A stretch of DNA of 64,000 nt, from positions 14,012,001 to 14,076,000 of the forward strand of contig NC_086108.1 in assembly GCF_963921235.1 (NCBI RefSeq). Reading direction: 5' to 3'. Position 1 is the stretch's first letter. Each line of letters begins with the position of its first letter. Below are positions 7,240 to 64,000 of the stretch, piece after piece. The position numbers and the translations under genes are program-made. The notes below the pieces were generated by a model that was not told where the DNA came from, ran no database searches, and saw only the letters and a program-made list of their open reading frames with translations. Source of the DNA: Mobula hypostoma (lineage: Eukaryota).

Positions 7240-9012
7240 TTGTCTGAGAAAGGCAACAGGAAACTATCAGGAAACTATAGGCAGGTGAGTTTTACAGCAG
7301 AGGTAAATTATTGGAGAAGATTTTTTTGGGACCAGTTTTACTTGCATTTGGAAGCATGGATTTAATTGGGATCATCAACATTGTTTTGCATGGGCGGTCC
7401 TACCTCACAAACTTGAGTTTTTTGAGGTGACAACGATGATTGGCGGAGATAGGGCAGTGGATGTCGCCTACATGGACTTTAGTAAAGCATCTGACAGGGT
7501 CTCTAATGGTGGGCTGATTAATTCACTTGGGATCCATGGTGAGATGTTAAATTGGAGTGATAGAAGGATATTATTCCGACTGAAGGTCTGCGACAAGTGA
7601 CGGTCTGAGAATATCAGTCCTGGGACCTCTGCTATTCGTTAGTTACCTGGAAGAAAATGTAGATGGACTGATAGTGAGTTTGCAGATGACACAGGAAATG
7701 TTGGTGCTGAGGATAATGAAATTGAAGATTTGTCAAAGGATACTGCAGGATATTGATTACTTGGAAGTATGGGCAGAGAAATGGAAGGTGGAGTTTAATC
7801 TGGACAAGAGTGAGGTGATAAACTTTGGAAGATCAAATGTAAGAAGCAAGTATACAGTAAATGGCATGACACCAAGGACTCAGGTATACAGATTGTTGGG
7901 GTGTAATTCCATAGCTCCCTGAAAGTGGCAACACACGTCGATATGGTAATAAAGAAGTCATATAGCATGCGTGCCTTCATCAGTCTAAATTGAGTATAAA
8001 TGCTGGGAAGTCATGTTGCAGCTGTACAGGCCACATTTGGAGTATTGTGTGTATTACTGGTTACTGCTCCCTAGAAAGCATGTGGAGGCTTTGGCGAGAG
8101 TGCAGGAGTGGTTTACCAGGATGCAGCCTGGATTGAAATATATTGGTATGAGGAGAGGTTGGAGCATTGAAGAGACCTGATAGAGGTTTATAAAATGAGA
8201 GTTTATACAACTATGGTTTATAATTAAAAATAAATTATAATTTATTGATAGATTTATTGATAGTTTTATAAAACTATGATAGCATAGACAAAGTTTTTTT
8301 CCTGGAAATGTCAAATACCAGAGGGCATTGCTTTAAGGTGATGGATGGGACTAGTTTAATAGAGACTTGAGTGTCAAGTTTTTAACATGGAAAATGGCTG
8401 GTGCCTAGAATATACTGAGAGTGCAGGTACTGGAAACAGATACAATAGGGGATTTAACGGGCTTTTAGACAGACACAGACAGGTGGGGAATGGTGGGATG
8501 TGGGTCATTTAGACAGACACACAGACAGGTGGGAAATGGTGGGAAGTGGGTCATTTAAACAGACACACAGACAGGTGGGAAATGGGGGGATGTGGGTCAT
8601 TTAGACAGACACAGACAGGTGGGGAATGGTGGGATGCGGGTCATTTAGACAGACACACAGACAGGTGGGAAATGGTGGGAAGTGGGTCATTTAAACAGAC
8701 ACACAGACAGGTGGGAAATGGGGGGATGTGGGTCATTTAGACAGACACAGACAGGTGGGGAATGGTGGGATGCGGGTCATTTAGACAGACACACAGACAG
8801 GTGGGGAATGGTGGGATGCGGGTCATTTAGACAGACACACAGACAGGTGGGGAATGGTGGGCCGTGGGTCATTTAGACAGACACATGGACAAGTGGCAAA
8901 TGGGGGTTATAGATCATGCACTAGATAGAACTAGTTTGTTCTGGTTCCTGGTTTGTGCAGACAATGGGGGCCAAAGGGCCCGTTCGTGTGTTGTACTGGT
9001 CTATGTTCTATA
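7240..9012 (+). mobile_element. Degenerate CR1 LINE RT/3' end carrying an internal minisatellite
   Basis: AYMDFSKASDRV-like, FADDT, QDIDYLEVWAEKWKVEFNLDKSEVINFG and PHLEYC segments, ending in a ...CTATGTTCTAT tail. Confidence 0.8.
8464..8915. repeat. Minisatellite of ~10 units of 44/46 bp with a 136-bp higher-order period
   Basis: Unit TTTAGACAGACAC(AC)AGACAGGTGGGRAATGGTGGGATGTGGGTCA. The ORFs at 8546 and 8682 have identical N-termini 136 bp apart. Confidence 0.95.
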
Positions 9013-10947: not shown

Positions 10948-11350
10948 GAGCAGGGTTTAAACTAGTTTGGCAGTGGTGTCAGAACCAGAGTGATAGGTCA
11001 GAGGATGGACAGTTAGTGTAAAGATAGATGCAGTTTGTAGAGAGACTGTGAGGAAGGATAGACAGCTGATAGGGCAAAATTGCAGTCAGGGGATGGGTTA
11101 AGGTGTATCTATTTTAATGCATGAAGTATCAGGAACAAGGGTGATGAACTTAGAGCATGGGTCAGTCCATGGAACCACAATGTTATGACCGTTACAGAGA
11201 CTTGGCTGTCACAAGGGCAGGAATGGCTGCTGATTGGGAGGCAAATTTTAGAAGCGTGCAAAAAATAACAGGGTTTTTGTCAGAGTTAACTTCAACTTTC
11301 CTAATATTGATTGGGATCTTGTTAGTGCAAAAGGTTTAATTGAGGTGGAA

Positions 11351-11474
11351 ACACGAGGAATTCTGCAGATGCTGGAAATCCAATCAATGAAGGGACTCGG
11401 CCCGAAACGTCGACTGTACCTCTTCCTAGAGATGCTGCCTGGCCTGCTGCGTTCACTAGCAACTTTGATGTGTG
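11351..11474 (+). mobile_element. Short Penelope-like element insertion (pseudo-LTR end with an inverted 5' tail)
   Basis: 15-bp TSD TTAATTGAGGTGGAA at 11336-11350 and 11475-11489. It carries ..ATGAAGGGACTCGGCCCGAAACGTCGACTG..GATGCTGCCTGGCCTGCTGCGTTCAC, shared with the PLE ends at 57206 and 63397. Confidence 0.85.
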
Positions 11475-12114
11475 TTAATTGAGGTGGAATTTGTTAGGTG
11501 TGTCTGGGAAGGATTCTTGACTCAATACCGACACAAGCCAATGGGAGGGGAAGCTATGCTCGATCTGATGCTAGGCAGTGAACCTAATCAGGTGTCAGAT
11601 CTCAGCGGGAAAGCATTTCGGAAACAGTGACCACATCTCTCCGACTTTTAGTCTAGCCTTGGAGAGAGATAGATGCAGATGATATGGGAAAGTAGTTAAT
11701 TAATTGGGGAGGGGGAAATTATAATGATATTAGGCAGGAACTGGGGATTATAAATTGGGAATGGATGTATCAGTGAAATGCAAAACAGTAAGACAGAGGT
11801 TGTTTAGGGAGCACTTGCCTGGGGTTCTACATATGTCTGTCCCATTGACGCAGGGAAAGAATGATAGTTTGAAGGAACCAAGGTTGATGAGATGTGGAAC
11901 ATCATGTCTGGAGTCAGAGGAGGTAGGGAAGGGTTGTAATGAATACTTTGTTTCAGTAATCACCAATGAGAGGGACCTTGACATTTGTGTGGACAGCATA
12001 TAACAGGCTAACATGTTAGAATCCGTTGATGCTAAAAAAAAGAGCATGAGCTGGAACTTTTGAAAAAGAGTAGAATAAATAAGAACCTGGGGCCAGACAA
12101 AATATACTTTAGGT

Positions 12115-23639: not shown

Positions 23640-23965
23640 CTTCGGACACACCAATCTCCATATTGTATCCTCCGACTACACCAATCTCCATACTGTAACC
23701 TCCAGACACACCAATCTCCGTACCGAATCCTGCGGGTACACTAATCTCTGTACCGTATCCTCCGAGTACACCGATCTCCATACCATATCCTCCGAGTACA
23801 CCAATCTCTGTACCATATCCTTCGGGTACACCAATCTCTATACTGCATCCTGCAGGTACATCAATCTCCAGACCGTATCCTCCGAATACACCGATCTCCA
23901 TACCGTATCCTCCAAGTACACCAATCTCTGTACCATATCCTGTGGGTACACCGATCTCCGTACAG
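23640..23965. repeat. 30-bp tandem repeat with ~11 diverged, indel-free units
   Basis: Plus-strand unit approximately CCTCCGAGTACACCAATCTCYRTACCRTAT. The minus strand reads (T/M)EIGVxGGYG repeated 11 times. Confidence 0.95.
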
Positions 23966-24009
23966 TATACGATGCACAATGTAGGGGATTCTGAATGTTC
24001 TCTTACGGC
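23640..24009 (-). CDS. Candidate internal exon encoding a Gly-rich 10-aa repeat (unverified)
   Basis: Acceptor TTCACATGCAG|G at 24010/24009 and consensus donor GAAG|GTGAGT at 23640/23639. The 370-bp frame is open. I recognise no homologue. Confidence 0.25.
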
Positions 24010-26829: not shown

Positions 26830-29800
26830 AGGGGACTGACTGGACTTAACTCTCAAGCTTGCAGGTGTGGCACCTTTGAGTGAACAAATGAGGAATTGCT
26901 AAAAATCTGTATTTCACTCTGGGTATGCCACTTATGCTTCCTGACACACCAGAGAAGGAAGTAGGTGGGGGGGGGGGCGATCTGTGTTTAATGATATAAA
27001 CTTTGTGGTGCTCAGATGCAGTGGTCTTGTCACATTCTTGTTACCCCGACCTGGCACATCTGCTGATTAATTGCTGACCATTCTACTTACCTGGAGAGCT
27101 CTCCTCTGTGATCCTAACTGCTGCTCACATGCTGCCAAAGGCCAATGTTAAGCAGGTGCTCAGGTAATGAATGCCACCATCAGCAAAGAAGAAATCATTG
27201 TTGGGGACTTCATTCAGGTTGTTCGAAGAAATCTCTGCCCAATTATCATCAACGTTATCATCTGCAGCACCAGGGGGTCCCAACACAGTCGACCACTGCT
27301 GTACTATGATTGGAACTGCCTACTGTTCAATCTGATCACTTAGCTGCCCTCTTTTCTCTTCTTTTTTCTCTCCAGCCCTGATGAAGGCCCAAAACGTCGA
27401 CTGTACTCTTTTCCATAGATGCTGCCTGGCCTCCTGAGTTCCTCCAGCATTTTGTGTGTGTTACTTGCATACAGGTAAAATAAATACACCCACAATTGTC
27501 ACAGGCTTTATAAAAACACAAGTGTGTCCCCACAAAATCATTCAGAGTCTTCCCTAATCAGAAGTCCTGGATAAACCAAGAGATCCACAATCTGTTGAGG
27601 GCCAGAGCAGTGGCATTCAGGTCTGGTGACCAAGTAAGATACAAGAGGTCCAGGTATGATATCAGGAAAGCACCTCGTGTTGAGCGGCAATTTCGGACCT
27701 AACTCGAATCACCAAAGGATGCTCAACAGCTGTGGCAGGGCTTGAATGCTATCACCTCCTACAAAGTGAAACTAGGCAACAAGGTTTAGCTCCCAGGTGA
27801 GCTCAATGCCTTTTAAGCTCGCTTTGACAGTCAAAACATGGAGGCACCTTTGCAAACTCCCACAGGCCTCGATGACCCTGTGATCTCAGACTCTGAGGCC
27901 GACATGAGAGCATCCTTCAGGAGGGTGAACCCACAGAAAGCATCTGGCACAAATGAAATACCTGGCCGAGTACTAAAGACATGTGCTAAAGAGTCCTTCG
28001 ATACCTCTTGCTTCAACAGTCTGAGGTACCCACCTGCTTCAAGCAGGCTTCAATTACACCAGTGTCTAAGAAGATCTCTTGCTTCAACAGTCTGAGGTAC
28101 CCGCCTGCTTCAATTACACCGGTGTCTAAGAAGAACATGGGACCTTGCCTCAATGACTGTCATCCAGTAGCACTTACCTCCACGGTGATGAAGTGTGTTA
28201 AGGGGTTTGGCGATGAAACATATTAACTCCTGCCGGAGAAGCAACTTTCATCTGCTACAATTTGCCTACCATCACGACAGGTCAACAGCAGATGCCATTT
28301 CACTGGCTCTTGACTCAATCCTGAAACACCTGGACAGCAAAGATGCATGCTTCAGGATACTCTTCATTGACTACAGCCATGCATTCAATACCATCATCTC
28401 CTCAAAATTAACTAATAAGTTTCAAGACCTATTACTCAGTACCCGCTTGTGCAATTGGATCCTTGATTTCCACACTTGCAGACCCAGTCAGTTCACATTG
28501 GCAACAACATCTCCTCCACAATCTCCATCAGCACTGGTACACCACAAGGCTGTGTGCTTAGCCCCCTGCTCTACTTGCTTTACACTTACAACTGTGTGGC
28601 TAAGCATAGCTCCAACGCCATATTTACGTTTGCTAATGACGCCACTGTCACAGACTGAATCAAAGGTGGTGACAAATCAGCATATAGGAAGGAGATCTGG
28701 TTGAGTAGTGCCACCAGAACAACTTCTAGCTCAGTGCCAGCAAGACCAAGGAGCTGATTATTGACTTCAGAAGGAGGAAACCAGAGGTCCATGGGCCAGT
28801 CTGCATCAGGGATCAGAGGTGGAAAGAGTTAGCAACTTAAAATTCTTCAATGTTATCATTTCAGAGGACCTACCCTAGGTCCAGCACATAAGAGCCATTA
28901 TGAAGAAAGGATGGCAGCACCTCTACTTCCTTGAGGTTTGCGAAGATTCAGCATGACAGCTTAAACTTTGACAAACTTCTCTAAATGTGTAGTAGAGAGT
29001 GTATTGACTGGTTGCATCACAGACTGGTATGGAAACAACAATGCCCTTGAATAGAAAATCCTACAAAAGGTAGTGGATACAGCCCAGTCCACCACGGTTA
29101 AAGCCCTCCCCACCATTGTGCACATCTTCACGGAGCAATGTCACAGGAAAGCAGCATCCATCATCAAGGACATCCACAATCCAGTTCATGCTCTCATCTT
29201 GCTGCGGGAAGAAGGTACAGAAGCCTCAGGATCCACACAAGCAGGTTCAGGAACAGTTATTATTCCTCAACCATCAGGGTTTGAGCCAGAGGCATAGCTT
29301 CATTTGACTTCACTCCTCCCATCACTGAACTGTTCCTGCAACCTACAGATTCAGTTTCAAGGAATTTTCATTTCATGTTCTCAATATTTATTGCATGTTA
29401 TTTATTATTATTATTATTTCTTTTTATATTTGCACAGTTTGTTGTCTTTTGCACACTGATTGTTTGTCCTGTTGGGTGCATTCAGTAGTAGTAGTAGTAG
29501 TAGTCGTCATACTTTATTGATCCCAGGGGGAAATTGGTTTTCGTTATAGTTGCACCATAAATAATAAATAGTAATAGAACCATAAATAGTTAAATAGTAA
29601 TATGTAAATTATGCCAGTAAATTATGAAATAAGTCCAGGACCAGCCTATCGGCTCAGGGTGTCTGACCCTCCAAGGGAGGAGTTGTAAAGCTTGATGGCC
29701 ACAGGCAGGAATGACTTTCACTGGTTCTATTGTTCTTGTACTTACGTGCGACTGCCTGCAAGGGAGTGAGTCTCAGGGTTGTATGTGGTGACATTTACGC

Positions 29801-47439: not shown

Positions 47440-48530
47440 AAATTAGCAGGATGGTGTCTGGGTTTGGGTGCCAGAGTTATAAGGAGAAGTTGTATAAATA
47501 TGGTCCATGACTTCATTGCTGTTCTGCCCATCTCCTGAGTAAATACCGATACAAAAAATCCATTTAAGATCTCCTCTGTCTCTTTCAGCTCCATGCATAG
47601 AGAACAACACTGATCTTCAAGTAGACCCATTTTGTCCCTTGTTATCTTTTGCTCCTTATACATCTGTAGAAGCTCCTTCACCTTTTCTTCCACAGCAAAA
47701 CTCTTGTCTTCTTTTAGCCCTCCTGATTTCCCTTTTTAGTTTTTTTTCTTGCATTTCTTATACTCCTCAATTACTTCATTTGTTCCTTGCTATGCACCTC
47801 CTCCTTCTTTTTAACCAAGACCTCAAAATCCCTCAAAAACCAAGGTCCCCTGTAAGTTTTGCCTTTGTTCTAACAGGAAAATATAAACTGCGTTCTGCCA
47901 ATATTTCACTTTTGAAGGTCTCCCACTTACCAAGCATTTTTTTGCCAGAAAAAAAACCCGTCCCAATTACACTTGCCAGATCCTTTTTGATACCTTCAAA
48001 ATTGGCCTCTCTCCAGGTCAGAATCTCAATTGAAGGACCAGGCGCATGCTTTTCCATAATTAACTTGAAACTAATGGAATCATGTTCACTAGATCCTAAG
48101 TGTTCCCCTTCACACACTTTTGTCACCTACCCTGTCTCATTCCCTGAAAGGAGATATAGTATCTCACTTTCTCTAGGTGGGACCTTTATATATTGATTGA
48201 GGAAAATTTCATGAACACATTTGGCAAACTCTATCTCATCCAGTCCTTTTACATTGTGGGAGTTCTAGTCAATATGTGGAAAGTTAAAATCATCTACTAT
48301 CACAACCATATTTTTCTCGTAACTTGCTATCTCTACAAATTTGCTCCTCTAAATCCCACTGACTTGTTGGGTGGTCTATAATATACTGCAATCCCATTAA
48401 CATGGTCTTCCTTTCCTATTTTTCAGTTCCACCCAATCAACCTCAGTAGATGAGCCCACCACCCTGTCCTGTCTGAGCACTGTCATGGGATTTCCCTGAT
48501 GAGTAATGCCACCCCTCCCCCTACTCCACC
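47440..48530 (-). mobile_element. CR1 EN/linker fragment
   Basis: VCEGEHLGSSEHDSISFKLIMEK..WREANFEGI and KITRDKMGLLEDQ..EILNGFFVSVFTQE. Confidence 0.8.
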
Positions 48531-48659
48531 CTACCTGTAGAACCAGCTCTCAGTGATTCAGGAACAGTTCTTCCTCTCTGCCACCAGATTTCTGAATGGC
48601 CATGAACCCACGAACACTACCTCATTATTCCTTTTCTTAAACTATAATAGTTATTACAC

Positions 48660-50710
48660 CAGTAATCGGTGGACTGGACTGTATTCAGGGATTCATCTTC
48701 AAACCTGGATGAGTATGCTGCAGTTGTTACCGACTTCATTAAAACCTGTATGGATGTGTATGTGTCCACAAAGACTTACTGTACATAACGAAACCAAAAG
48801 CCATGGATGAACCAGGAGGTACATCGTCTGCTGATGGCTAGATCTGTGATATTCAAGCCTGGCAAACCAGCTCTGTACCAGAAAACCAGGTATGATTTGT
48901 GGAGGGCTATTTCAGGGGCAAAGAGACAATTTTGAATGAGGTTGGAGGCGACATTGGATGCACAGCAACTCTGGCAGAGTCTGCAAGACATTACTTCCTA
49001 TAAAGCGAAACCCAATAGCATGAATGCCAGTGATGCTTCACTACCAGATGAACTCAACGCCTCCTATGCATGCTTTGAAAGGGAGAACACTACTACAGCT
49101 GTGAAGATCCCTGCTGCACCTGATGACCCTGTGATATCTGTCTCAGAGGCTGACGTTAGGCTATCTTTAAAGAGAGTGAACCCTCACAGGGTGGAAGGTC
49201 CAGATGGAGTACCTGGTAAGGCTCTGACAAACCTGTGCCAACAAACTAGCAGGAGTATTCAAGGACATTTTCAGACTTTCACTGCTACGGGCAGAAGTTC
49301 CCACTTGCTTCAAAAAGGCAACAATTATACCAATGCCTAAGAGGAATAATGTGGGCTGTCTTAATGATTATCACCCGGTACCACTCACACTGACAGTGAT
49401 GAAATGCTTTGAGAGGTTGGTCATGACTAGTCTAAACTCCTGCCTCATCAAGGACCTGGACCCATTGCAATTTGCCTATCGCCACAATAGGTCAACGGCA
49501 GATGCAATCTCAATGGCCACCTGGACAACACAAACACCTATGTCAGGATGCTGTTCATCGACTATAGCTCAGCATTTAATATCATCATTCCCACAATCCT
49601 GAGTGAGAAGTTGCAGAACCTGGCCCTCTGTACCTCCCTCCGCAATTGGATCCTCGACTTCCTAACTGGAAGACCACAATCTGTGCGGGTTGGTGATAAC
49701 ATCTCCTCCTCACTAACGATCAACTCTGGTGCACTTCAGGGGTGTGGGCTTAGCCCACTGCTCTACTCTCTACATACACATGACTGTGCGGCTAGGCACA
49801 GCTCAAATACCACCTATAAAGTTGATGAATTTATAACCATTGTTGGTAGAATCTCAGATGGTGACGAGAGGGTGTACAGGAGTGAAATGTGCCAACTAGT
49901 GGAGTGGTGCCACAGCAACAACCTGGCACTCAATGTCAGTGACGAAAGAGCTGATTGTGGAGTTCAGGAAGGGTAAGACGAAGGAACACATACAGTACCA
50001 ATCCTCGTAGAGGGATCAGAAGTGGAGAGAGTGAGCAGATTCAGGTTCCTGGGTGTCAAGATCTCTGAGGATCTAACCTGGTCCCAATATATTGATGTAG
50101 TCATAAAGAAGGCAAGACAGTGGCTATATTTTATTAGGAGTTTGAAGGGATTTGGTATGTCAACAAATATACTCAAAAACTTCTATAGTTTTACTGTGGA
50201 GAGCATTCTGTCAGGCTGCATTACTGTCTGGTATGGAGGGACTACTGCACAGGACCGAAAGAAGCTGCAGAAGGTTGTAAACCTAGTCATCTCCATCTTG
50301 GGTACTAGCTTACAAAGTACCCAGGACATCTTCAGGGAGCGGTGTCTCAGAAAGGCAGCATCCATTATTAAGGACTTCCAGCACCCAGGGAATGCCCTTT
50401 TCTCACTGTTACCATCAAGAAGGAGGTACAGAAGCCTGAAGGCACACACTCAGTGATTCAGAAACAGCTTCTTCCCCTCTGTCATCCAATTCCTAAATGG
50501 ACGTTGAATCTTTGGACAATACATCACTTTTTTTAATACACAGTATTTCTGTTATTGCACTTTTTTAAAATCTATTCAACTTACGTAATTGATTTACTTG
50601 TTTATTTATTATTTTTTTTCTCTCTGCTGATTACGTATTGCATTGAATTGTTGCTGCTAAGTTAACAAATTTCACGTCACATGCTGGTTATAATAAACCT
50701 GATTCTGATT
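48660..50710 (+). mobile_element. Rex1/Babar LINE (RT through 3' end)
   Basis: [81 protein letters not shown] and ORF 50022-50456, with tail AATAAACCTGATTCTGATT. Confidence 0.92.
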
Positions 50711-51339
50711 CATTTATTTTTGTGAGTTATTCTAATTTTATGTCTTTGCACTGTACTATTGCTGCAAAATAACAAATTCCACATTGAATGAGATAGTGAT
50801 TATAAATCTGATATTGATTTTGTTTCAGCTGGTATTTTTGAAAGTGAGTTCCATACTTCTAAAGCTCTGCGCAGAAGTGCTTCCTGTCTTTAATTCTGAA
50901 AGAGCTGCTCGAGTCAATCTTCACAGATTCATCAATCAAGAGAAATAAAGTTTCCCATCAGTATCTTACAAATTCAATCAAATCATCCCGTAACCTTTTC
51001 ACTTCCAGTGAATACAGTTTTGGTTTGTGTTTGTCCTCTCTGTGGGTTAACCCTTGGAGTCCTGGTATCTTTGATAAATTTGAGGTGCACTTTCTTGAGT
51101 CCAATATATACTGATAGAGTTGTGATGCCCAGAACAGTTTCTTGTACTCCAACACGGTACAACCAGAGCACGTTCTCTGCTCCTGTGTGTTGCAGTTTCC
51201 TGGTTATAAAGCCCAGCAATCCATCTGTTTCTCTGATTATTTTACACCTCTGTCATGCACAAGGAGTGGAACTGGAGTTTTTCTTCCTTCTCAATTGATT
51301 CAAAGTTCAAAGTAACATTTATCATCAGAGCACATACAT

Positions 51340-52586
51340 ACAAGAAATAATCGCCTAAGAGCAGGCTGGATTCAGAAGTGGAAAAAATATGACAGAACAG
51401 ATATTCAGCCTCTGAGTACTGTGCGAGAAATACAACCAACACCAACAGGACACCTTCCATGTGTTCATAGACTTCAAGAAGGCATTCAATAGGGTGTGGC
51501 ATGATGCACTCTGGGCCAAAATGAAGAGATACAACACGAGCCAGAAGCTGATCCAAATCATCAAGCAGCTCTACACCAAAGCTAGCAGTGTGGTACTTGT
51601 TCAAGGCACAGTTGGAGAGTGGTTCCACACATCAGTTGGAGTCTGACAAGGACGCCTCCTTTCACCCATGCCGTACAATATTTTCTTGGAGCAAGTAATG
51701 ACAGATACCCTGGAAGATCCTATCGGCACAGTCAGTATCAGAGGACAGATCATAACCAACCTTAGGTTCGCCAATGACATTGATGGGCTGGCAGGAGGTG
51801 AGGATGAATTGGCCTGCCTTGTGAACCATCTGGATGATACATCTACCAGATATGGCATGTAGATCAGCCCAGAGAAAACCAAGCTGATGAGAAACAGTGA
51901 GCAGCCTATCACGACAAAAATCACTGTCAGTGGACAAGGACTAGAGACTGTCACATGGTTCAAGTATCTTGGCGCCATCATCAACCAGGAAGGATCAAAG
52001 CCTGAAGTCCTTGCAAGGACAGCCCGGAAAACAGCAATGCTGGCTGAACTAAAACCAATCTGGAGAGGCAATAACATTGCTCTCAGATCTAAGCTGAAAC
52101 TCCTGCATGCACTTGTGCTTTCTGTCTTCTTGTATGCATGTGAATCATGGACTTTGACAGCAGAACTGCAAAAGAAGATCCAGGCAGTAGAAATGAGATG
52201 CTTCAGAGGTTCCTTTGGTATCTCCTATACAGACCATGTCTCAAACGACGAAGTATGAAGGACCATCACCCAGCACATGGGACACTACAAAGATCTACTG
52301 TCCAAAGATCTAAAGAAGAGAAAAATGAGGTGGTATGGCCACATAACAAGATCAAGTGGACTCTCAGAGACCATTCTTCAGGGGATGATGCGGGGGAAAG
52401 GAAAAAAGGGGCAAACAGAGGAAGAAATGGACAAACAACATTGCAGAGTGGACTGGAGAGAGGTTTGCCACAACCCAGGCACTTGCCCACAACCGTGAGA
52501 GATGGAGGCAACTGGTGCAGAGCTCATTGAGTACAGCGTCCCTACGGCCCAGGCGGGTTGCGGAATCCGTAACCATAATCATAACT
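51340..52586 (+). mobile_element. RTE-clade LINE, second family, 5'-truncated, inserted in a Rex1 3' tail
   Basis: EQAGFRSG.., FIDFKKAFNRVWH, ITNLRFANDIDGLAG and FKYLGAII..LYACESWTLTAELQKKIQAVEMRCFR. Tail AACCATAATCATAAC. The host tail (51300-51339) resumes at ~52587. Confidence 0.88.
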
Positions 52587-53105
52587 TACATGTCACCACA
52601 TCCATCCCTCAGGTTTTTCTTCCTGTGGGCGTGCTCCACAAAAAAAAAACAGTAACAGTAAACAGGATCAATGAACAACAAACTGTACAAATACAAATAT
52701 AAATAAATAGCAATAAATAACGAGAGCATGAAATAACAAGATAAAGAGTCCTTAAAGTGAGATCATTGTTTGTGGGAACAGCAGAAATTGAACAAGTGTA
52801 ATTATCCCCCCTTGTTCAAGAGCCTGATGGTTGAGGGGTAGTAACTGTTCTTGAACCTGGTGGTCTGAGTCCTGAGGCTCTTGTACCCTCTACCTGATGG
52901 CAGCAGCGAGAAAATAGCATGGTCTGGGTAGTCAGGTTTTCTGATGATGGATGCTGCTTTTCTATAACAACGTTTCATATAGGTGTGCTCATTGGTTGGG
53001 AGGGCTTTACCCAGTGAATCCACAACCTTTTGTAGGATTTTCCACTCAAAGGCATTGGTGTACCTTTACCAGGCCGTAATGCAGCCAGTCAATACACTTT
53101 CCACC
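52587..53105 (-). mobile_element. Rex1/Babar 3' fragment
   Basis: GKALPTNEHTYMKRCYRKAASIIRKPDYPDHAIFSLLPSGRGYKSLRTQTTRFKNSYYPSTIRLLN. Confidence 0.85.
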
Positions 53106-53116
53106 TCACATCCAGC

Positions 53117-53334
53117 GACTGTAGAGGGAAGGGGCAGAGGCCCTATAGAGAAGGTGGGGGAAGGCTGGAAGCTACCAGCCTTCTCCTTCCCACCCTCCCC
53201 CCACCTTCTTTATAGGGCCTCTGCCCCTTCCCTCTACAGTCCTGACGAAGGGTTTCGGCCCGAAACGTCGACTGATCATTTCCACGGATGCTGCCCGACC
53301 TGCTGAGTTCCTCCAGCATGTTGTGAGTGCTGCC
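53117..53334 (+). mobile_element. PLE pseudo-LTR fragment with an inverted 5' segment
   Basis: 53117-53160 is the reverse complement of 53198-53241 with one mismatch. The hammerhead motif and the shared PLE end follow. Confidence 0.85.
53237..53274 (+). ncRNA. Minimal type I hammerhead ribozyme motif with an intact core
   Basis: CAGTC (stem I), CTGACGA, A, GGGT-TTCG-GCCC (stem II), GAAA, CG, TC (predicted cut after 53269), GACTG (stem I'). Confidence 0.8.
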
Positions 53335-53339
53335 CTGGT

Positions 53340-53766
53340 GTACTCATTCAGGCCCTCAGATGAGTGCTTGAACGCGGCCCAGTCCAGTGACTCAAGGTAA
53401 TCCTGTCACCGCTCCTCAGCCTCCTGCAATCACCCCTTGTTTGTCTTGATCTCTGGAGCCTTGCATTTCGGGCTCTGTCCGTATGCAGGAGGTAGGAGTG
53501 CATCTAAATGATCTAACTTGCCAAAATACAGTCTCAGAAAGGAATGATAGTCATTGCTTATCGTGGTATAGCAGTGATCTAGTGTGCTGGGACCTCAGGT
53601 GCAACAGGTCACATGCTGGTGATAATTGGGCGGGGTTTTCTTCAAACAGGCCTGGTTGAAGTCACTGACTATAATTTGAAATGTGTTGGGATGGGCTGTT
53701 CCTTGCCTGCAGATGACATTCTGCAGTTTTGTGAATGCTTGCCTATAATTGGCTGCTATTGGTATA
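53340..53766 (-). mobile_element. Rex1/Babar EN fragment (3' side of the Tc1 insertion)
   Basis: IPIAANYRQAFTKLQNVICRQGTAHPNTFQIIVSDFNQACLKK continues ..FVILTTVY from 61539 onward. Confidence 0.8.
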
Positions 53767-54106
53767 CGGCCCCACCCCCCCACCCGATCATGTTTTGATG
53801 TTTTACAACATTGAATCACAGCGGATTTAATTTAGCTTTTTTTGACACTTAAAAAGACCCTTTTGTGTTGTAATGAAAACATCGCAACAAAGTGATCTAA
53901 ATTAATTACAATATAAAACACAAAATCATTGATTGCATAAGTATTCACCCCATTTAATATGACACACCAAATCATCACTGGAGCAGCCAACTGGTTTTAC
54001 AAGTCACGTAATTAGTTAAATGGAGATCATCTGTGTGCAATCAAGGTGTTTCAATAGATTGTAGTAAAAATACACCTGTATTGGGAGGGTCCAACTGCTG
54101 GGGTAA

Positions 54107-54162
54107 GGGCTGATGGGCTGATGGGCTGATGGGCTGATGGGCTGAAGGGCTGAAGGGCTGAA
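54107..54162. repeat. 8-bp tandem repeat (GGGCTGAT/GGGCTGAA) x7 in the LINE 5' UTR
   Basis: Read directly from the sequence: four GGGCTGAT units then three GGGCTGAA units. Confidence 0.9.
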
Positions 54163-57100
54163 CACTGGCTTTGGGACAATTGCTGTGTATGGAACTGCTG
54201 GGGTGTTGTGGGGGACATTCTGTGGGAATATTGACTGACGGCCTGTATAGGTCCGGAGTGATATTCACACATGGTTTCTTGCAAACTCTGATAGGATGGC
54301 AGGGAGGGAGACTGATGGTGACAGCAATAGCAAAGAGTTTGAGTGGGGAGAGGGACTCAGAACAGGAAGGTGATGGGTCGGAAGAGAAAGAAAAGAGGTG
54401 GGTCTAGTGCAGGTGGATCGGAAAGTGAGGGAAGAGAAGTTGAGGAGAAGGGCCCGAGGGCAAAATTGCTAAATGTAGTGGTAAGATTTGAGGGGGAAGG
54501 GGGAGTAAAGAAAACCGATCTGCTTTAGCTAACAAAAATCATCAGAGGACAAGTAGGGGAAGTGAGCCACGTGAGAATTTTAGGAGATGGAAACCTGCTG
54601 ATAGGATGTAAAACTGAAGAGCAGATGGAGAAGGCAATGAAGGTGACTAATGTTGGGAAAGTCGAAGTGTCCAGGGTTGTAAGAGTTGGAGCACAAAGGG
54701 TCAATGGTTGCAAGGGGGTGATCTCCAGGTTTCCCCTCAGTGTTAATATGAAGGAGCTAGTGGAGAACTTGAGGGTGAGGAATGGTTCAGTGAAGAGTGT
54801 GAAAAGAATGACAAGGGGAGCAGAGAAAAGGAGACTGAAACTGTTCTGGTAGAATTTGAGGATAAGGTGCCTCCAAAGGAGTTATATTTTGGATTTCTAA
54901 GATACAATGTAAGAGAATATATACCAGAACCTATGAGGTGTTTCAATTGCCAGGAGTTTGGGCATGTGGCCAAAGTGTGCAAAGGAAAGAGAAGATGTGC
55001 AAGGTGTGGTGGGGAACATGAATACGGAAAACGTGGAGAGGGAGTGAGGCCAAAGTGCTGTAATTGTGGAGGTAACCGTAGTGTAGCATACTGGGGGTGT
55101 GAAGTGTTGAAAAAAGAGTTGGAGGTGCAGCAGATACGGGTGAAGGAAAAAGTCTCATATGCTGAGGCAGTCAAGTTGGCAGGACAGAAGAAATTGAATG
55201 AGGGAGAATGTAGCAAAGAGCAAATGGCAAGATAAGAATGTATGGATAGAGAAGAAGAAATTGGTGACCTTTATAGCAGGAGTGGTAAACGCAAGTAAAT
55301 GGGAAGAAGTAAACAATGAACTCAGGGTACAGTCAAGTCAAGAGGCAGTATGTGTGGGTTGATATTACTAATAATGCTACTTCTTCAATGGAATGCAAGA
55401 AGCCTGATTGCTAATGGACAAGATTTCAAGCAGCTTATAGCTAGTAGGAGAGATAAGACAGATATTGTGTGTATCCAGGAGACCTGGTTAAAACCTAATT
55501 TGGATTTATATGGTTATGTGGCAGTAAGGTGAGACAGGAGAGAGGGGGGAGTAGGAGGACGTGCAACTTATGTAAAGCAAGGTATTCCTTATAGAATACT
55601 AGGTATAGGAAGTAAACAAGAGTATGTGGTAGTAAAAGTATGGGCTGAAAGGAAAGAGTTGGTGATTGTGAATTAATATAATCCATGCAAAAGACTAGAG
55701 TTAAACAAGCTTGAGGAGATAGAAGGGCAGAATAGTAGTAACGTTGTTTGGTGTGGTGATTTTAATGGACATAATGTATTATGGGGGAGTGACAGAACAG
55801 ACATCAATGGTCAGGTAATAGAGGAGTTGCTAGATGAGAAGTATTTAGTATGCCTAAATGATGACAGTAGTACTAGAATTGATGTTAATACAGGTAAAGA
55901 ATCTGTGCTTGATCTTACATTAGTATCAAACACCATTGCATCAGTGTGTGATTGGTTAGTATACCAAGAAGGAACTGTAAGGAGTGATCATTACCCAATC
56001 TGGTGCAAGATAAATATTTCTGCCTCATTGGTCACAAAGAATACAGGTGGGAAATGGATCCTTGAGAAAGCCAATTGGGAGAAATTTCTGGAAAAAAATT
56101 GATAGATAGCTAAGTCAGGTCAGTGATGGAATGGACATAGAAACACTTGACAGCATATTAAAACAAGGTATAATATCAGCTGCATTAGAATCCATTCCTA
56201 AAAGTAAAGGAAGAATAAAGAAGTGAGTAATACCATGGTGGGATGATAATTGAAAGGAAGCAGTGAGAAATAGAAATAAGGCATTTAAACTGGTTAAAAG
56301 AACTCAACTTCCAACATATGATTCAGTACAAACAAGCTCAGGCAGTAGTAAGGAGGACAATAAGACATGCTAAAAGGACGCACTGGAGAAAGTATTGTGA
56401 TTTAATCAGGAACACAACTCAAGTAGGGGAGGTGTGGGGGATGATAAAAAGGACAGGACGGGACAGGAGAGGGTGGAGGTGCCCAGCTCTGGTTGATGGA
56501 AATGTGACTGCAGTAACAAATAAGGAAAAGGCAGAGTTGTTGGCAAACACTTTTGTTACGGTACATAGTTCCCATAATTTGTCTGAGAAGGGAAGAAGAG
56601 GTAGAGAGAGAACAAAAGCTGAAAGCATGGAGGCTTTATGTTGGAAAACTAACCTTGACGGTGTGCGAGATGTTCCTTTCAGCATGGGAGAATTAAGAAA
56701 GGCACTAGATAAAACAGGAAAGACTGCGCCGGGTAAAGATGAAATGTGTTATAGTATGATAAAACACTTGAGTGAAGGAAGTCTGGAGAAACTACTGCTT
56801 CTGTATAACAAAGTCTGGGATGAAGGGAGAATATCAGGGAGCTGGAAAGAGGCAATAATTATTCCAATAAGGAAATCTGGGAAAGATGCCAGCAGGCCAG
56901 GAAACTACAGGCCAATTGCCTTGACGTCACGTATGTAAACTTATGGAACGTATGATAAATGAGAGGTTAGTGTACTTCTTGGAAAGCAGAGGTATGGTGG
57001 CTACGTATCAAAGCGGGTTCAGGAAAGGAAGGAATACTATGGATCCAGTGTTGTGTCTAGAGGATGAAATAAGAAAAGCTCAAGTAAATAAAGAGACAGT

Positions 57101-57205
57101 GGTTGCAGTTTTATTTGATGTTGAGAAAGCTTATGATATGTTATGGAAAGAGGGGCTCCTAATCAAGCTACATTTAATGGAAATCGGGGTGGGGGCGATG
57201 TTCAA

Positions 57206-58295
57206 GCAACACACATAAAAGTTGCTGGTGAACGCAGCAGGCCAGGTAGCATCTCTAGGAAGAGGTGCAGTCGACGTTTCAGGCCGAGACCCTTCGTCAG
57301 GACTCTTTAGACAATGGCCTGGTGCTCCTTAGTGGGGTCACGATCGGGGGGTAAATAAGAGGAGGTATCCGCGAGTTGTCACTGTGCCTCGGCAAGGTAG
57401 AGGTCAGTACGCCAGACTACAACAGCACCCTCCTTATCAGCGGGTTTAATAATAAGGTTAGGATTACTGCGGAGGGAGTGGAGAGCAGAGCGTTCCGAAG
57501 GAGTGAGGTTGGAATGGGGACAAGGTGCGGTGAAGTCGAGACGGTTGATGTCCCGTCGGCAGTTAGCGATAAAGAGATCCAGAGCAGGCAGAAGACCAGA
57601 GCGGGGTGTCCATGAAGAAGAAGAGGGTTGAAGACGGGAGAAGGGGTCATCGGTGGGGGTGGAAGAGTCCTTGCCGAAGAAGTAGGCTTGGAGACGGAGA
57701 CGGCGGAAAAAAAGTTCCACATCATGGCGAACATGGAACTCGCTGAGGTGTGGGCGAAGGGGGACAAAGGTGAGGCCCTTACTGAGGACAGCGCTCTGCC
57801 TCCGACAGTTGAAGGCCGGAGGGGATGGTAAAGACCCGGCACGGATGAGAGCTGGGATCAGAGGGGGCAGGGGGGAGGCTGGGGGTGTCAATGGAGAGGG
57901 GAGGGTTGGGGTCTCTGATGGAGCCTCTGAGGACCCAGGAGCTGACGATGGGATCTGAAGGAGATGGGATTGCAGAGTATTGGTCGGGGAAGGGGAGACG
58001 GGAGTCACAATAGCAGCACATAAAGACCCGGCCTGGAGTTCAAGGCTGGAATCTTGAGAGCTGGGATCAGAGGGGGGAGGGGAGAGGCTGAGGGTGTCAG
58101 TGGAGAGGGGATGGTTGGGGTGAGAGGAAGATGGAGCCTCTGAGGGCCCAGGAGCTGACAGTGGGATCTGAGGGAGATGGAGTTGCAGAGTGGTGGTGGG
58201 GGAAGGGGAAACAGGAGTCACAATAGCAGCACATAAAGACCCGGCCTGGAGTTCAAGGCTGGAGTCGCAGTTGGTGGTTGCGCAATCACTTCGAA
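57206..58295 (-). mobile_element. Penelope-like element, internally deleted, inserted in the Nimb RT
   Basis: 16-bp TSD TGGGGGCGATGTTCAA at 57190-57205 and 58296-58311. The ORF has VLSKGLTFVP..FFRRLRLQAYF..SNLTPSERSALHSLRSNPNLIIKPADKEGAVVVW (PLE pre-RT region). There is a ~209-bp internal tandem duplication, and the ORF is joined directly to the hammerhead-bearing end. Confidence 0.92.
57268..57304 (-). ncRNA. Minimal hammerhead ribozyme motif with an intact core
   Basis: Minus strand AGTC-CTGACGA-AGGGTCTCGGCCT-GAAA-CG-TC-GACTG. Confidence 0.75.
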
Positions 58296-60326
58296 TGGGG
58301 GCGATGTTCAATTGGGTTAAGGACTTTTTAAACGGGAGAACTATTCAGGTGAAGATAGGATCAGAGCTATCAAGCCAGTATGTTGTAGAAAACGGGATGC
58401 CTCAGGGGAGTGTAGTGAGTCCAACTTTATTCTCCATTTTGATAAATGATATATTTGTAAATATTCCAATGGAAGTGGGGAGGTCATTGTTTGCAGATGA
58501 AGAGGTGTGGAAAAGAGGGAGAAATATTGAACATATAGTTGCGAAAGTGCAAGATGGAATTAATCAAGTTGGGGAACAAAATGGGATATTAAATTTTCAG
58601 TGGAGAAGACAAAAGCCATGTTCTTTACAAGGAAAAAGTTCAGGGGACTTAATTTGAATCTGTATGGAAGTAACCTGGAGAGAGTTGAAAGTTTTCAGTT
58701 TTTGGGAGTGCACTTTGACTTGAGATTAATATGGAAAGAACATGTTAGATATGTAGTTACTAAATGTAAAAATGTGATAAATGTCATGAGGTGTCTTGCT
58801 GGATTGGAATGGGGCGCTGATTTTGCATCACTGAAGTATATTTATGTAGCATTAATAAGATCAAGATTAGACTATGGAGGTATTCTATACAGGTCAGCAG
58901 CAAAATCTGTGCCAGCAGAACTGGATATCGTACAAGCTCAGGCTCTGAGGGTGTGCTTGGGAGCGGTTAGAACTTCCCCAGTGTGTGCACTCCAAGTTGA
59001 AGCAAATGAAATGTCATTGGGGCTGTGGCGTAAACAGCTGGAGGCCAATTACTGGATTAATTTAAGGGGGCATGGTGATAGCCATCCTACAAAAAGGGTG
59101 TTGCAGACATGCTGAGAGAAGGAGAGGACACAAAAAGAAAGTGTTGGCTTGACAGGACAGCAAACAGCAAAAGATATGGGTGTATACGATAAAGAGTTTT
59201 GTCCAAGTGTAGTGTGGCCTGTCAGATCTTTCTGGGTATTAGAAAATCCCTCTGTAGATTTGGAATTACTTAAGATTAAATACAGTAATAAGACGGCTGA
59301 TATACTCAGTGAATATCATAGTTATAGGGAACGTAACATACAGATTTTTATGGATGAGTGGATCAAAGGATCCAGGAACAGGTGCAACAGGGTCTGCAAT
59401 TGTCGTGCCAAGTTATCAAGTGGAAATTAGCAAGAGAACACCTGATTGCTTGAGCGTATATGCAGTTGAAATGTTTGCCATATTGTTAGCACTAGAATGG
59501 AGTGCGCAGGTTGATTGTAATACTATTGTGATATATAACGATTATGTATCGGCCCTTGCAAGCATTAAGACGGGTACAGCTAGAGGTCATCAGGATCTGC
59601 TTTATGAAATCCTGTTTGCAAATTCAAGACTGGCTAGACAAGGCAAAAATATCGCATTCATGTGGGTTCCAGCACATTCGGGTATCATGGGAAATGAGAC
59701 AGCAGACGGGCTGGCAAAAGCAGCAGTCGAAAAAAAGGATCTGTAGAGGTCAATATTAAACTATCAAAATCAGAGGGGAAGAACATAGTGTGGAGAAGGA
59801 TAAATCAACAGCGGCAGCAGCATTGGGATAGAGCAATAAAAGGAAGACATTTACATTCAATTCAGAACAGAGTAGATATGGGAAGAAGTAGGGGAGTAAG
59901 TAATTATAAGTAGACTGAGAATTGGGCACAATTGCCTCTGGCACTCTGGCCATCATAAATAAGCATCCAACAGGTTTTTGCGATCTATGTCAGGAGACTG
60001 AAACAGTAGAGCAAATCCTTATTTCATGCAGGAAATTTGCACGGGAAAGGCAACAAATGTTACAACAATTACACAAAATAGGACTGGTAGAGAACAGTGT
60101 TAATGGTTTATTGGAATGTGGGGAGAGTGATCAGGGGAGGAAATTGTTGTTTAGTTTTTTAAGGGCGACGGGACTGGAAAGACGGCTTTAAAGTGAATGG
60201 ACAATGAGGGACAACAAATCCTGAAGATGGCAGTAATGCAACAGTGTGGATGCCAACTGCTGTAAAAACTCAAGAAGGAAGAAGAAGAAGGTCAAACTGC
60301 TGGTGAGTTAGTATCCTGGCTGTACC

Positions 60327-63393: not shown

Positions 63394-64000
63394 AAACACA
63401 AAATACTCTGCAGATGCTGGGGTCAAGGCAACACTCACAACACGCTGGAGGAACTCAGCAGGTCGGGCCGTATCCCTGGAAATGATCAGTCAACGTTTTG
63501 GGCCGGAACCCTTTGTCAGGACTGAAGAGGGGAGGGGGCAGAGGCCCTATAAAGAAGGTGGGAGGAGGGTGGGAAGGGGAAGGCTGGTAGGTTCCATGTG
63601 AAAAACCAGTAAGGGGAAAGATAAAGGGGTGGGGAAGGGGAGGCAGGGAGGTGATAGGCAGGAAAAGTGAAGAAGGAATAGGGGAAAACACAATGGGTAG
63701 TAGAAGGAGTTGGAACCATGATGGAGGTGATCAGCAGCTGGGAGAGGGCAGAGTGACATAGGGATAGGGGAAGGGAGGGGGAGGGAATTAACGGAAGTTG
63801 GAGAATTCTATGTTCATGCCAAGGGGCTGGAGACTACCTAGACGCTATATGAGGTGTTGCTCCTCCAACCTGAGTTTAGCCTTATCATGGCAGTAGAGGA
63901 GACCATGTATGGACATATCTGAATGGGAGTGGGAAGCAGAGTTGAAGTGAGTGGCTACCGGGAGATCCTGTCTGTTGTGGCAGACGGAGCGGAGGTGCTT
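63394..64000 (-). mobile_element. Penelope-like element 3' end (GIY-YIG C-terminus and pseudo-LTR), continuing beyond the window
   Basis: Minus strand KHLRSVCHNRQDLPVATHFNSASHSHSDMSIHGLLYCHDKAKLRLEEQHLI*RLGSLQPLGMNIEFSNFR*, a pyrimidine-rich UTR and a decayed hammerhead at 63487-63524. Confidence 0.9.

Follow-up and report, generated by a model that had tools for sequence, protein, structure and literature searches.

We find that the hammerhead motif at 53237-53274 (+) of the window, the whole stretch of 64,000 nucleotides of DNA that was analysed, is probably a passenger in the pseudo-LTR of an EN+ Penelope-like element (PLE), carried along in a young abortive insertion and most likely non-cleaving. 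The motif was read from the sequence, where it is identical letter for letter to the one spelled out in the original prediction, and it is composed of the following parts.

53237-53274, forward strand: minimal type I hammerhead, identified from the sequence, a structured descriptor compared with 300 shuffles, and the published consensus
53237-53241, forward strand: 5' strand of stem I, CAGTC, forming 5 bp with GACTG
53242-53248, forward strand: core CTGACGA
53249, forward strand: extra A between the core and stem II
53250-53253 and 53258-53261, forward strand: stem II, GGGT/GCCC, 4 bp, with loop TTCG
53262-53265, forward strand: GAAA
53266-53267, forward strand: CG, within the palindrome ACGT at 53265-53268
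53268 and 53269, forward strand: T, and C (position 17), after which the cut is predicted
53270-53274, forward strand: 3' strand of stem I, GACTG

The core CUGANGA...GAAA...UH is complete, and the cut site had been placed correctly after C53269, where the match to the core pattern stops. In the accessible part of the supplement to PMC4209133 the consensus of the PLE minimal hammerheads is given as CUGANGAH-G..C-GAAAN-palindrome-UH, and an extra nucleotide, a G10.1-C11.1 pair and the palindrome are recurring features of the class (PMC4209133); here they correspond to A53249, to the pair G53250-C53261 and to ACGT at 53265-53268. The identification as a minimal type I hammerhead in a PLE end is upheld by the agreement with this consensus and by a sibling copy that is tied to the end of a PLE ORF. 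The extra A, which had also been pointed out, is indeed present and is one of the features known to recur in PLE minimal hammerheads (PMC4209133). Likewise, the UUCG-capped stem II holds for this copy but is not the norm of the family, as C dominates at 53254, with 1.86M of 2.58M of summed contig depth (~72%, reading CUCG) in sequencing run X1; in runs X5, X9 and X15 its share is comparable or greater. The UUCG loop is a minority variant and no family trait. Its closing pair is U-G; the extra-stable UUCG tetraloop is closed by C-G.

The motif lies within an insertion of ~225 nt at 53113-53337 that has no ORF and consists of a 5'-truncated PLE end behind its own inverted copy. The insertion and its left flank are organized as follows.

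52590-53112, reverse strand: 3' fragment of an older LINE-like repeat that makes up the left flank and is 70-79% identical to copies elsewhere in the window
53113-53116, no strand: 4-nt filler between the LINE-like repeat and the inverted arm; the LINE match stops at 53111-53112
53117-53171, reverse strand: copy of 53172-53241 in inverted orientation, lacking ~15 nt internally, from the inverted repeat and folding
53157-53186, no strand: palindromic apex of the inversion, likely the fold-back point, arms 53157-53171 and 53172-53186 with a spacer of 0 nt
53166-53337, forward strand: 5'-truncated piece of PLE pseudo-LTR, 90.8% identity over 173 columns to 63596-63424

The PLE end on the forward strand had been recognized in the original prediction, whereas the adjacent inverted arm at 53117-53171 had been missed. 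The inverted repeat runs between 53117-53168 and 53190-53241 (52 nt, 94% identity); over 44 nt, the outer arm is mismatched at one position, and the outer end of the arm is the complement of the 5' strand of stem I and ends exactly there. The apex is centred at 53171/53172, with 3-nt self-complementarity around 53166-53177. The forward piece itself has no ORF, and it lacks both the ~29-30-nt tail found on the sibling at 63 kb and ~190 nt of upstream pseudo-LTR that the sibling has. No target-site duplication was found at the 53113-53337 insertion, the longest word common to the flanks being 6 nt and lying off the junctions. Inverted 5'-truncated copies, tails and an optional target duplication have been described for PLEs (PMC3846280, PMC8557442, accessible parts), and palindromes at the apex have been read as self-priming in PLE insertions (PMC3846280).

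The LINE-like fragment, which was compared with window copies at 17.3-17.8 kb and 29.0-29.4 kb (the latter with a weak RVT_1 match upstream, 28192-28701, E 8e-6, below the cut-off), is not continued to the right of the insertion. A jump of the LINE into the PLE was considered and rejected, as no PLE sequence is apparent to the left of the LINE and the LINE is far more diverged. Among the joints listed, from four sequencing runs, there was neither an empty-site joint nor a piece spanning the insertion, and the junctions are read from one allele. The degree of divergence indicates a young insertion: over 44 nt its arms disagree at one position, whereas the LINE alongside has 70-79% identity to its siblings in the window. 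The motif keeps five of five CpGs in its 38 nt, in a window with a CpG observed/expected ratio of 0.28.

Based on this anatomy, we propose the following course of events. According to the literature, the motif of a parent element would cut tandem RNA, either by dimerising or assisted by the element's protein. At this locus, reverse transcription would have begun near 53337 on RNA that was uncut at the hammerhead; the continuity of the sequence across the cut site implies that uncut RNA was used. Synthesis would have stopped ~170 nt further on, near 53166, and the new DNA end may then have folded back on the small palindrome and copied itself for ~55 nt, as far as the 5' strand of stem I, after which it would have been joined to the target via the 4-nt filler and without a target duplication. 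As DNA, the end of the cDNA is predicted to adopt another hairpin, a weak one at -2.5 kcal/mol, which does not reproduce the proposed fold-back exactly. The resulting solo copy would have no tandem partner, and its read-through RNA would form a hairpin of ~55 bp that holds the 5' strand of stem I. The intact core, finally, would reflect youth and not selection: the sibling has lost G8, G12 and C17 at CpGs and the motif keeps all five, so that no selection is needed to account for its intactness. With a motif so packed with CpGs, genomic copies should decay fast.

A local search returned six related stretches in the 64 kb, at ~11.4, 27.4, 30.2, 31.0, 57.3 and 63.5 kb, among which are the following features.

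11350-11490, forward strand: small PLE insertion in which an inverted tail precedes a forward piece whose start lies within the hammerhead core
27370-27465, forward strand: PLE end that has lost most of stem II and retains both core boxes in part
57200-58300, reverse strand: internally deleted copy of a second PLE subfamily, core at 57300, passing the descriptor
63395-64000, reverse strand: closest sibling, of the same subfamily, with broken ORF C-terminus, pseudo-LTR and ~29-nt tail
64000-63788, reverse strand: broken ORF C-terminus of the sibling, from homolog search
63524-63487, reverse strand: decayed hammerhead of the sibling, with G8, G12 and C17 lost, each at a CpG

The 11-kb copy is flanked by a target duplication of 14-15 bp. 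The 57-kb copy has a 16-bp target duplication, lies within a LINE-like ORF2 and contains a two-copy 213-bp tandem at 57846-58263. Its hammerhead end is joined directly, at 57310-57304, to an N-terminal ORF piece; relatives of this ORF piece carry RVT_1 in 3 of 17 cases and GIY-YIG in 1 of 17, and its atlas assignment is DUF8422 at 0.98. The same copy splits a broken retroelement at 54747-59746 (+), in which zinc knuckle, endonuclease, RT and RNase H follow in order. The window also holds minisatellite arrays at 8464-8906, 23648-23968 and 54107-54161, with periods of 46, 30 and 8 nt, respectively.

The position at which the inverted arm ends raises a speculative proposal, which we hold to be unlikely: the mirror hairpin of stem I in the cDNA may stall synthesis or prime fold-back, with the consequence that PLE junctions would cluster there and some insertions would silence themselves. 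The cDNA is predicted to form this hairpin at -7.2 kcal/mol, and two junctions fall at stem I, namely the end of the arm described here and the start of the hammerhead end at 57 kb, the latter after a short filler. Among the joints listed (15 of 266), only two join opposite strands and both have one side at 53238; the joints at 53238 among those listed were found in 7 contigs of run X1, 6 of X5 and 1 of X9. The shorter side of one of them measures 37 letters, the length of 53238-53274, as would be expected of fold-back priming on stem I. Finding two such junctions by chance among 6-10 has p 0.02-0.05, a rough and post hoc estimate, and the copies at 63, 27 and 11 kb, which have no junction at stem I, argue against clustering. 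If true, junction clustering would bear on why PLEs keep a hammerhead that is dispensable for insertion in vitro.

The activity of this copy was assessed from folding, predicted at equilibrium and 37 °C for RNA free of protein and Mg2+. In the bare motif, stem I and stem II are both predicted to form (p 0.93-1.0 and 0.9-1.0, respectively), with the core GACG pairing with CGUC, such that the open core has p 0.001. Opening the core would cost 4.2 kcal/mol in the bare motif and 10.1 kcal/mol in the insertion, and forcing stem I would cost 0.3 kcal/mol in the forward piece, 6.0 kcal/mol in the whole insertion and 8.1 kcal/mol when the flanks are included. A pair of closed monomers, at -29.0 kcal/mol, is predicted to be favoured over the active-type dimer, at -19.9 kcal/mol. 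The outcome depends on where the RNA begins. For RNA starting at or upstream of 53117 the arm pairs with the 5' strand of stem I and the predicted probability of stem I is 0.00, and for later starts it is 0.76 from 53120 and 0.68-1.0 from 53125-53237; as a shift of the start by 3 nt brings stem I back, the masking appears to rest on the last 3-5 bp of the arm. On read-through, 53117-53241 would be a near-perfect hairpin of 125 nt (~55 bp of dsRNA). The 64-kb window contains no intact partner hammerhead on the same strand, the only other match to the descriptor being on the opposite strand.

Self-cleavage upon transcription, as had been suggested for this copy, is thus not what the folding points to: the arm is predicted to displace stem I, the closed core is favoured and a same-strand partner is absent. 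Since the arm takes the 5' strand of stem I, the core of the monomer is closed and there is no tandem partner, this copy is probably unable to self-cleave. A monomer of this class showed no cleavage and dimers cleaved weakly (PMC4209133), and the hammerhead of the Anolis PLE required the element's protein for cleavage, and in vitro insertion did not depend on that hammerhead, as given in the accessible text of PMC11167929.

It is quite unlikely, by comparison, that the copy cleaves in vivo, from a transcript that starts within 53120-53236 or after editing or processing of the hairpin, with stem III supplied in trans. Every letter of the core is intact, stem I is predicted when the RNA starts at 53120 or later, and the protein-assisted cutting known for the Anolis PLE hammerhead could act in trans (PMC11167929); family sequence is also present in contigs of run X15, which we guess to be RNA, but these contigs can be tied neither to this locus nor to its strand. 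Against cleavage, the copy has no evident start site, as it lacks ~190 nt of pseudo-LTR upstream, and folding prefers a closed core even for the motif on its own. For Anolis, the RNA-seq data in the accessible text of PMC11167929 had no reads beginning or ending at the cut site.

The preferred reading, a non-cleaving passenger of a PLE, also draws on the family to which the insertion belongs. Via the sibling at 63.4-64.0 kb, the hammerhead is placed downstream of, and in sense to, an ORF whose relatives carry RT and GIY-YIG-like regions, and it is in sense to the ORF in both the 57-kb and the 63-kb copies. Pfam gave nothing on three short PLE ORF translations, and these were placed instead by homolog searches. 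The ORF end of the sibling is 93% identical to a stingray protein, and 10 of 10 matches are from stingrays and devil rays. In the 93%-identical stingray protein we observed a YVDN RT-like motif, a CKRKCYTC linker and a CxxC inside the GIY-YIG stretch; YIDD is found in two others. A CX2-3CxxC linker together with a GIY-YIG-like end with internal CxxC occurs in four of five relatives (P0001, P0003, P0005 and P0007), and the Pfam GIY-YIG matches, in four of five, have E values of 4.6e-4 to 2e-3, all below the curated cut-off. Neptune elements are defined by a CX2-5CxxC linker between RT and EN and by CCHH in EN (PMC8557442, accessible part). Both the linker and the CCHH are found in P0001, P0003, P0005 and P0007, the linker being common to Nematis, and from these motifs in database relatives we infer a C-terminal EN+ PLE family of Neptune or Nematis type. 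Annotated isoforms of ray host genes (P0001, P0004, P0006 and P0008-P0010) match the PLE ORF end with 74-93% identity, which suggests that they carry exonised or mis-annotated PLE pieces.

Contigs matching 52850-53700 numbered 64,116, 61,086 and 60,629 in three DNA runs and were deepest over the forward PLE piece, and 328 variable places were found in the contigs of four sequencing runs. Depth summed over the motif reaches ~2 million, compared with ~10 for a flank contig present in single copy, figures that do not amount to a copy number. These data suggest that the PLE family is very large and abundant in several related species; scans with the family pattern found no locus in either metagenome or viral contigs.

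The family link bears on whether the insertion could be a monomer of a non-LTR retrozyme and not a direct stump of a PLE, which we regard as very unlikely. Such retrozymes derive from PLE pseudo-LTRs and have been reported in one chondrichthyan genome, with an average consensus of 363 bp and often as monomers (bioRxiv 10.64898/2026.07.22.740005, accessible part). Here, however, the examined window has no tandem array at the locus, the closest sibling is joined to the end of a PLE ORF, and the inverted arm is a signature of PLE insertion. Domestication by the host as a regulatory RNA, for instance an intronic cleavage element or a microRNA-like precursor, is extremely improbable. The core is intact and the 125-nt hairpin over 53117-53241 scores against many microRNA precursor models, but all of these scores are below the gathering score, as expected of any long GC-rich hairpin, and the matches were rejected as generic. 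Moreover, the flanks are repeat debris, the Pfam matches among 51 of the 52 long ORFs of the window are to retroelement-type domains, and the insertion appears young.

The motif is not a chance arrangement. The bare core pattern alone is uninformative, being at chance level in the window with 13 matches, where 100 shuffles give 7.9 ± 3.6 and 10 of them reach 13. When the stems are included, a relaxed descriptor matches only at 53242 (+) and 57300 (-) in the 64-kb window, against a background mean of 0.02 per shuffled window (one match in 6 of 300 shuffles and two in 0 of 300), and a strict structured descriptor had 0 matches in 300 shuffles. The search with hammerhead models that had been put forward as a check gave no hammerhead match in Rfam at E<=10, on either 48000-58000 or 53225-53290. 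Rfam hammerhead models expect a fuller helix III. Across the seven window copies, several of which are decayed or truncated, 86% of 50 stem cells are paired, the covariation score is reached by 19 of 500 shuffles, and one of nine pairs has changed on both sides, a level reached by 234 of 500 shuffles. Although the bare core, the Rfam result and this weak covariation could speak for coincidence, its probability is negligible given the strict descriptor, the position at a PLE end and the agreement with the literature of every consensus feature that was not searched for (PMC4209133).

Hammerheads of this class have been known since 2014 and are widespread, with ~4,000 motifs in coelacanth and 9,000 in Xenopus (PMC4209133, accessible part), and this locus is one of very many PLE stumps. 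The single locus thus matters little; a family this young and abundant is well suited to testing PLE hammerheads for selection when CpG decay is allowed for. We found no description of PLE hammerheads in cartilaginous fish beyond the one genome of the retrozyme survey, in a search that covered few subscription journals, and Repbase or Dfam may catalogue the family.

The closest known system is the metazoan PLE minimal hammerhead of Cervera and de la Pena (2014, PMC4209133), which, in the parts accessible, is alike in being type I, in its extra nucleotide, in the GAAA-CG-UC palindrome in place of helix III, in the G10.1-C11.1 pair, in a helix I of 4-5 bp, in a pyrimidine-rich 5' flank and in occurring mostly as solo copies in truncated PLEs. 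The row for Ixodes scapularis(1) in its supplement has nearly the same layout as 53237-53274. Helix II has 4 bp here, whereas 5-8 bp are common in that set; the accessible supplement has no row for a cartilaginous fish, and the arm that is predicted to block stem I is particular to the copy described here. Complex insertions of EN+ PLEs (Arkhipova et al. 2013, PMC3846280; Craig et al. 2021, PMC8557442), as far as their accessible text goes, share the inverted partial pseudo-LTR by the 5' end, the palindrome at the inversion, the optional target duplication and the tail on some copies. By contrast, the present insertion totals ~225 nt, and its arm stops before the hammerhead core and not at the 3' end of the element. 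Poseidon-Ac of Anolis carolinensis (Frangieh et al. 2024, PMC11167929, accessible part) likewise has a minimal PLE hammerhead and inserts uncut RNA, but it belongs to another clade, as Penelope/Poseidon elements have no CxxC linker like that of this family's relatives. The animal non-LTR retrozymes (bioRxiv 10.64898/2026.07.22.740005, accessible part) are also short, non-coding, of type I and derived from PLE pseudo-LTRs, whereas the insertion described here is non-tandem, carries a PLE-type inversion and has an ORF-linked sibling.
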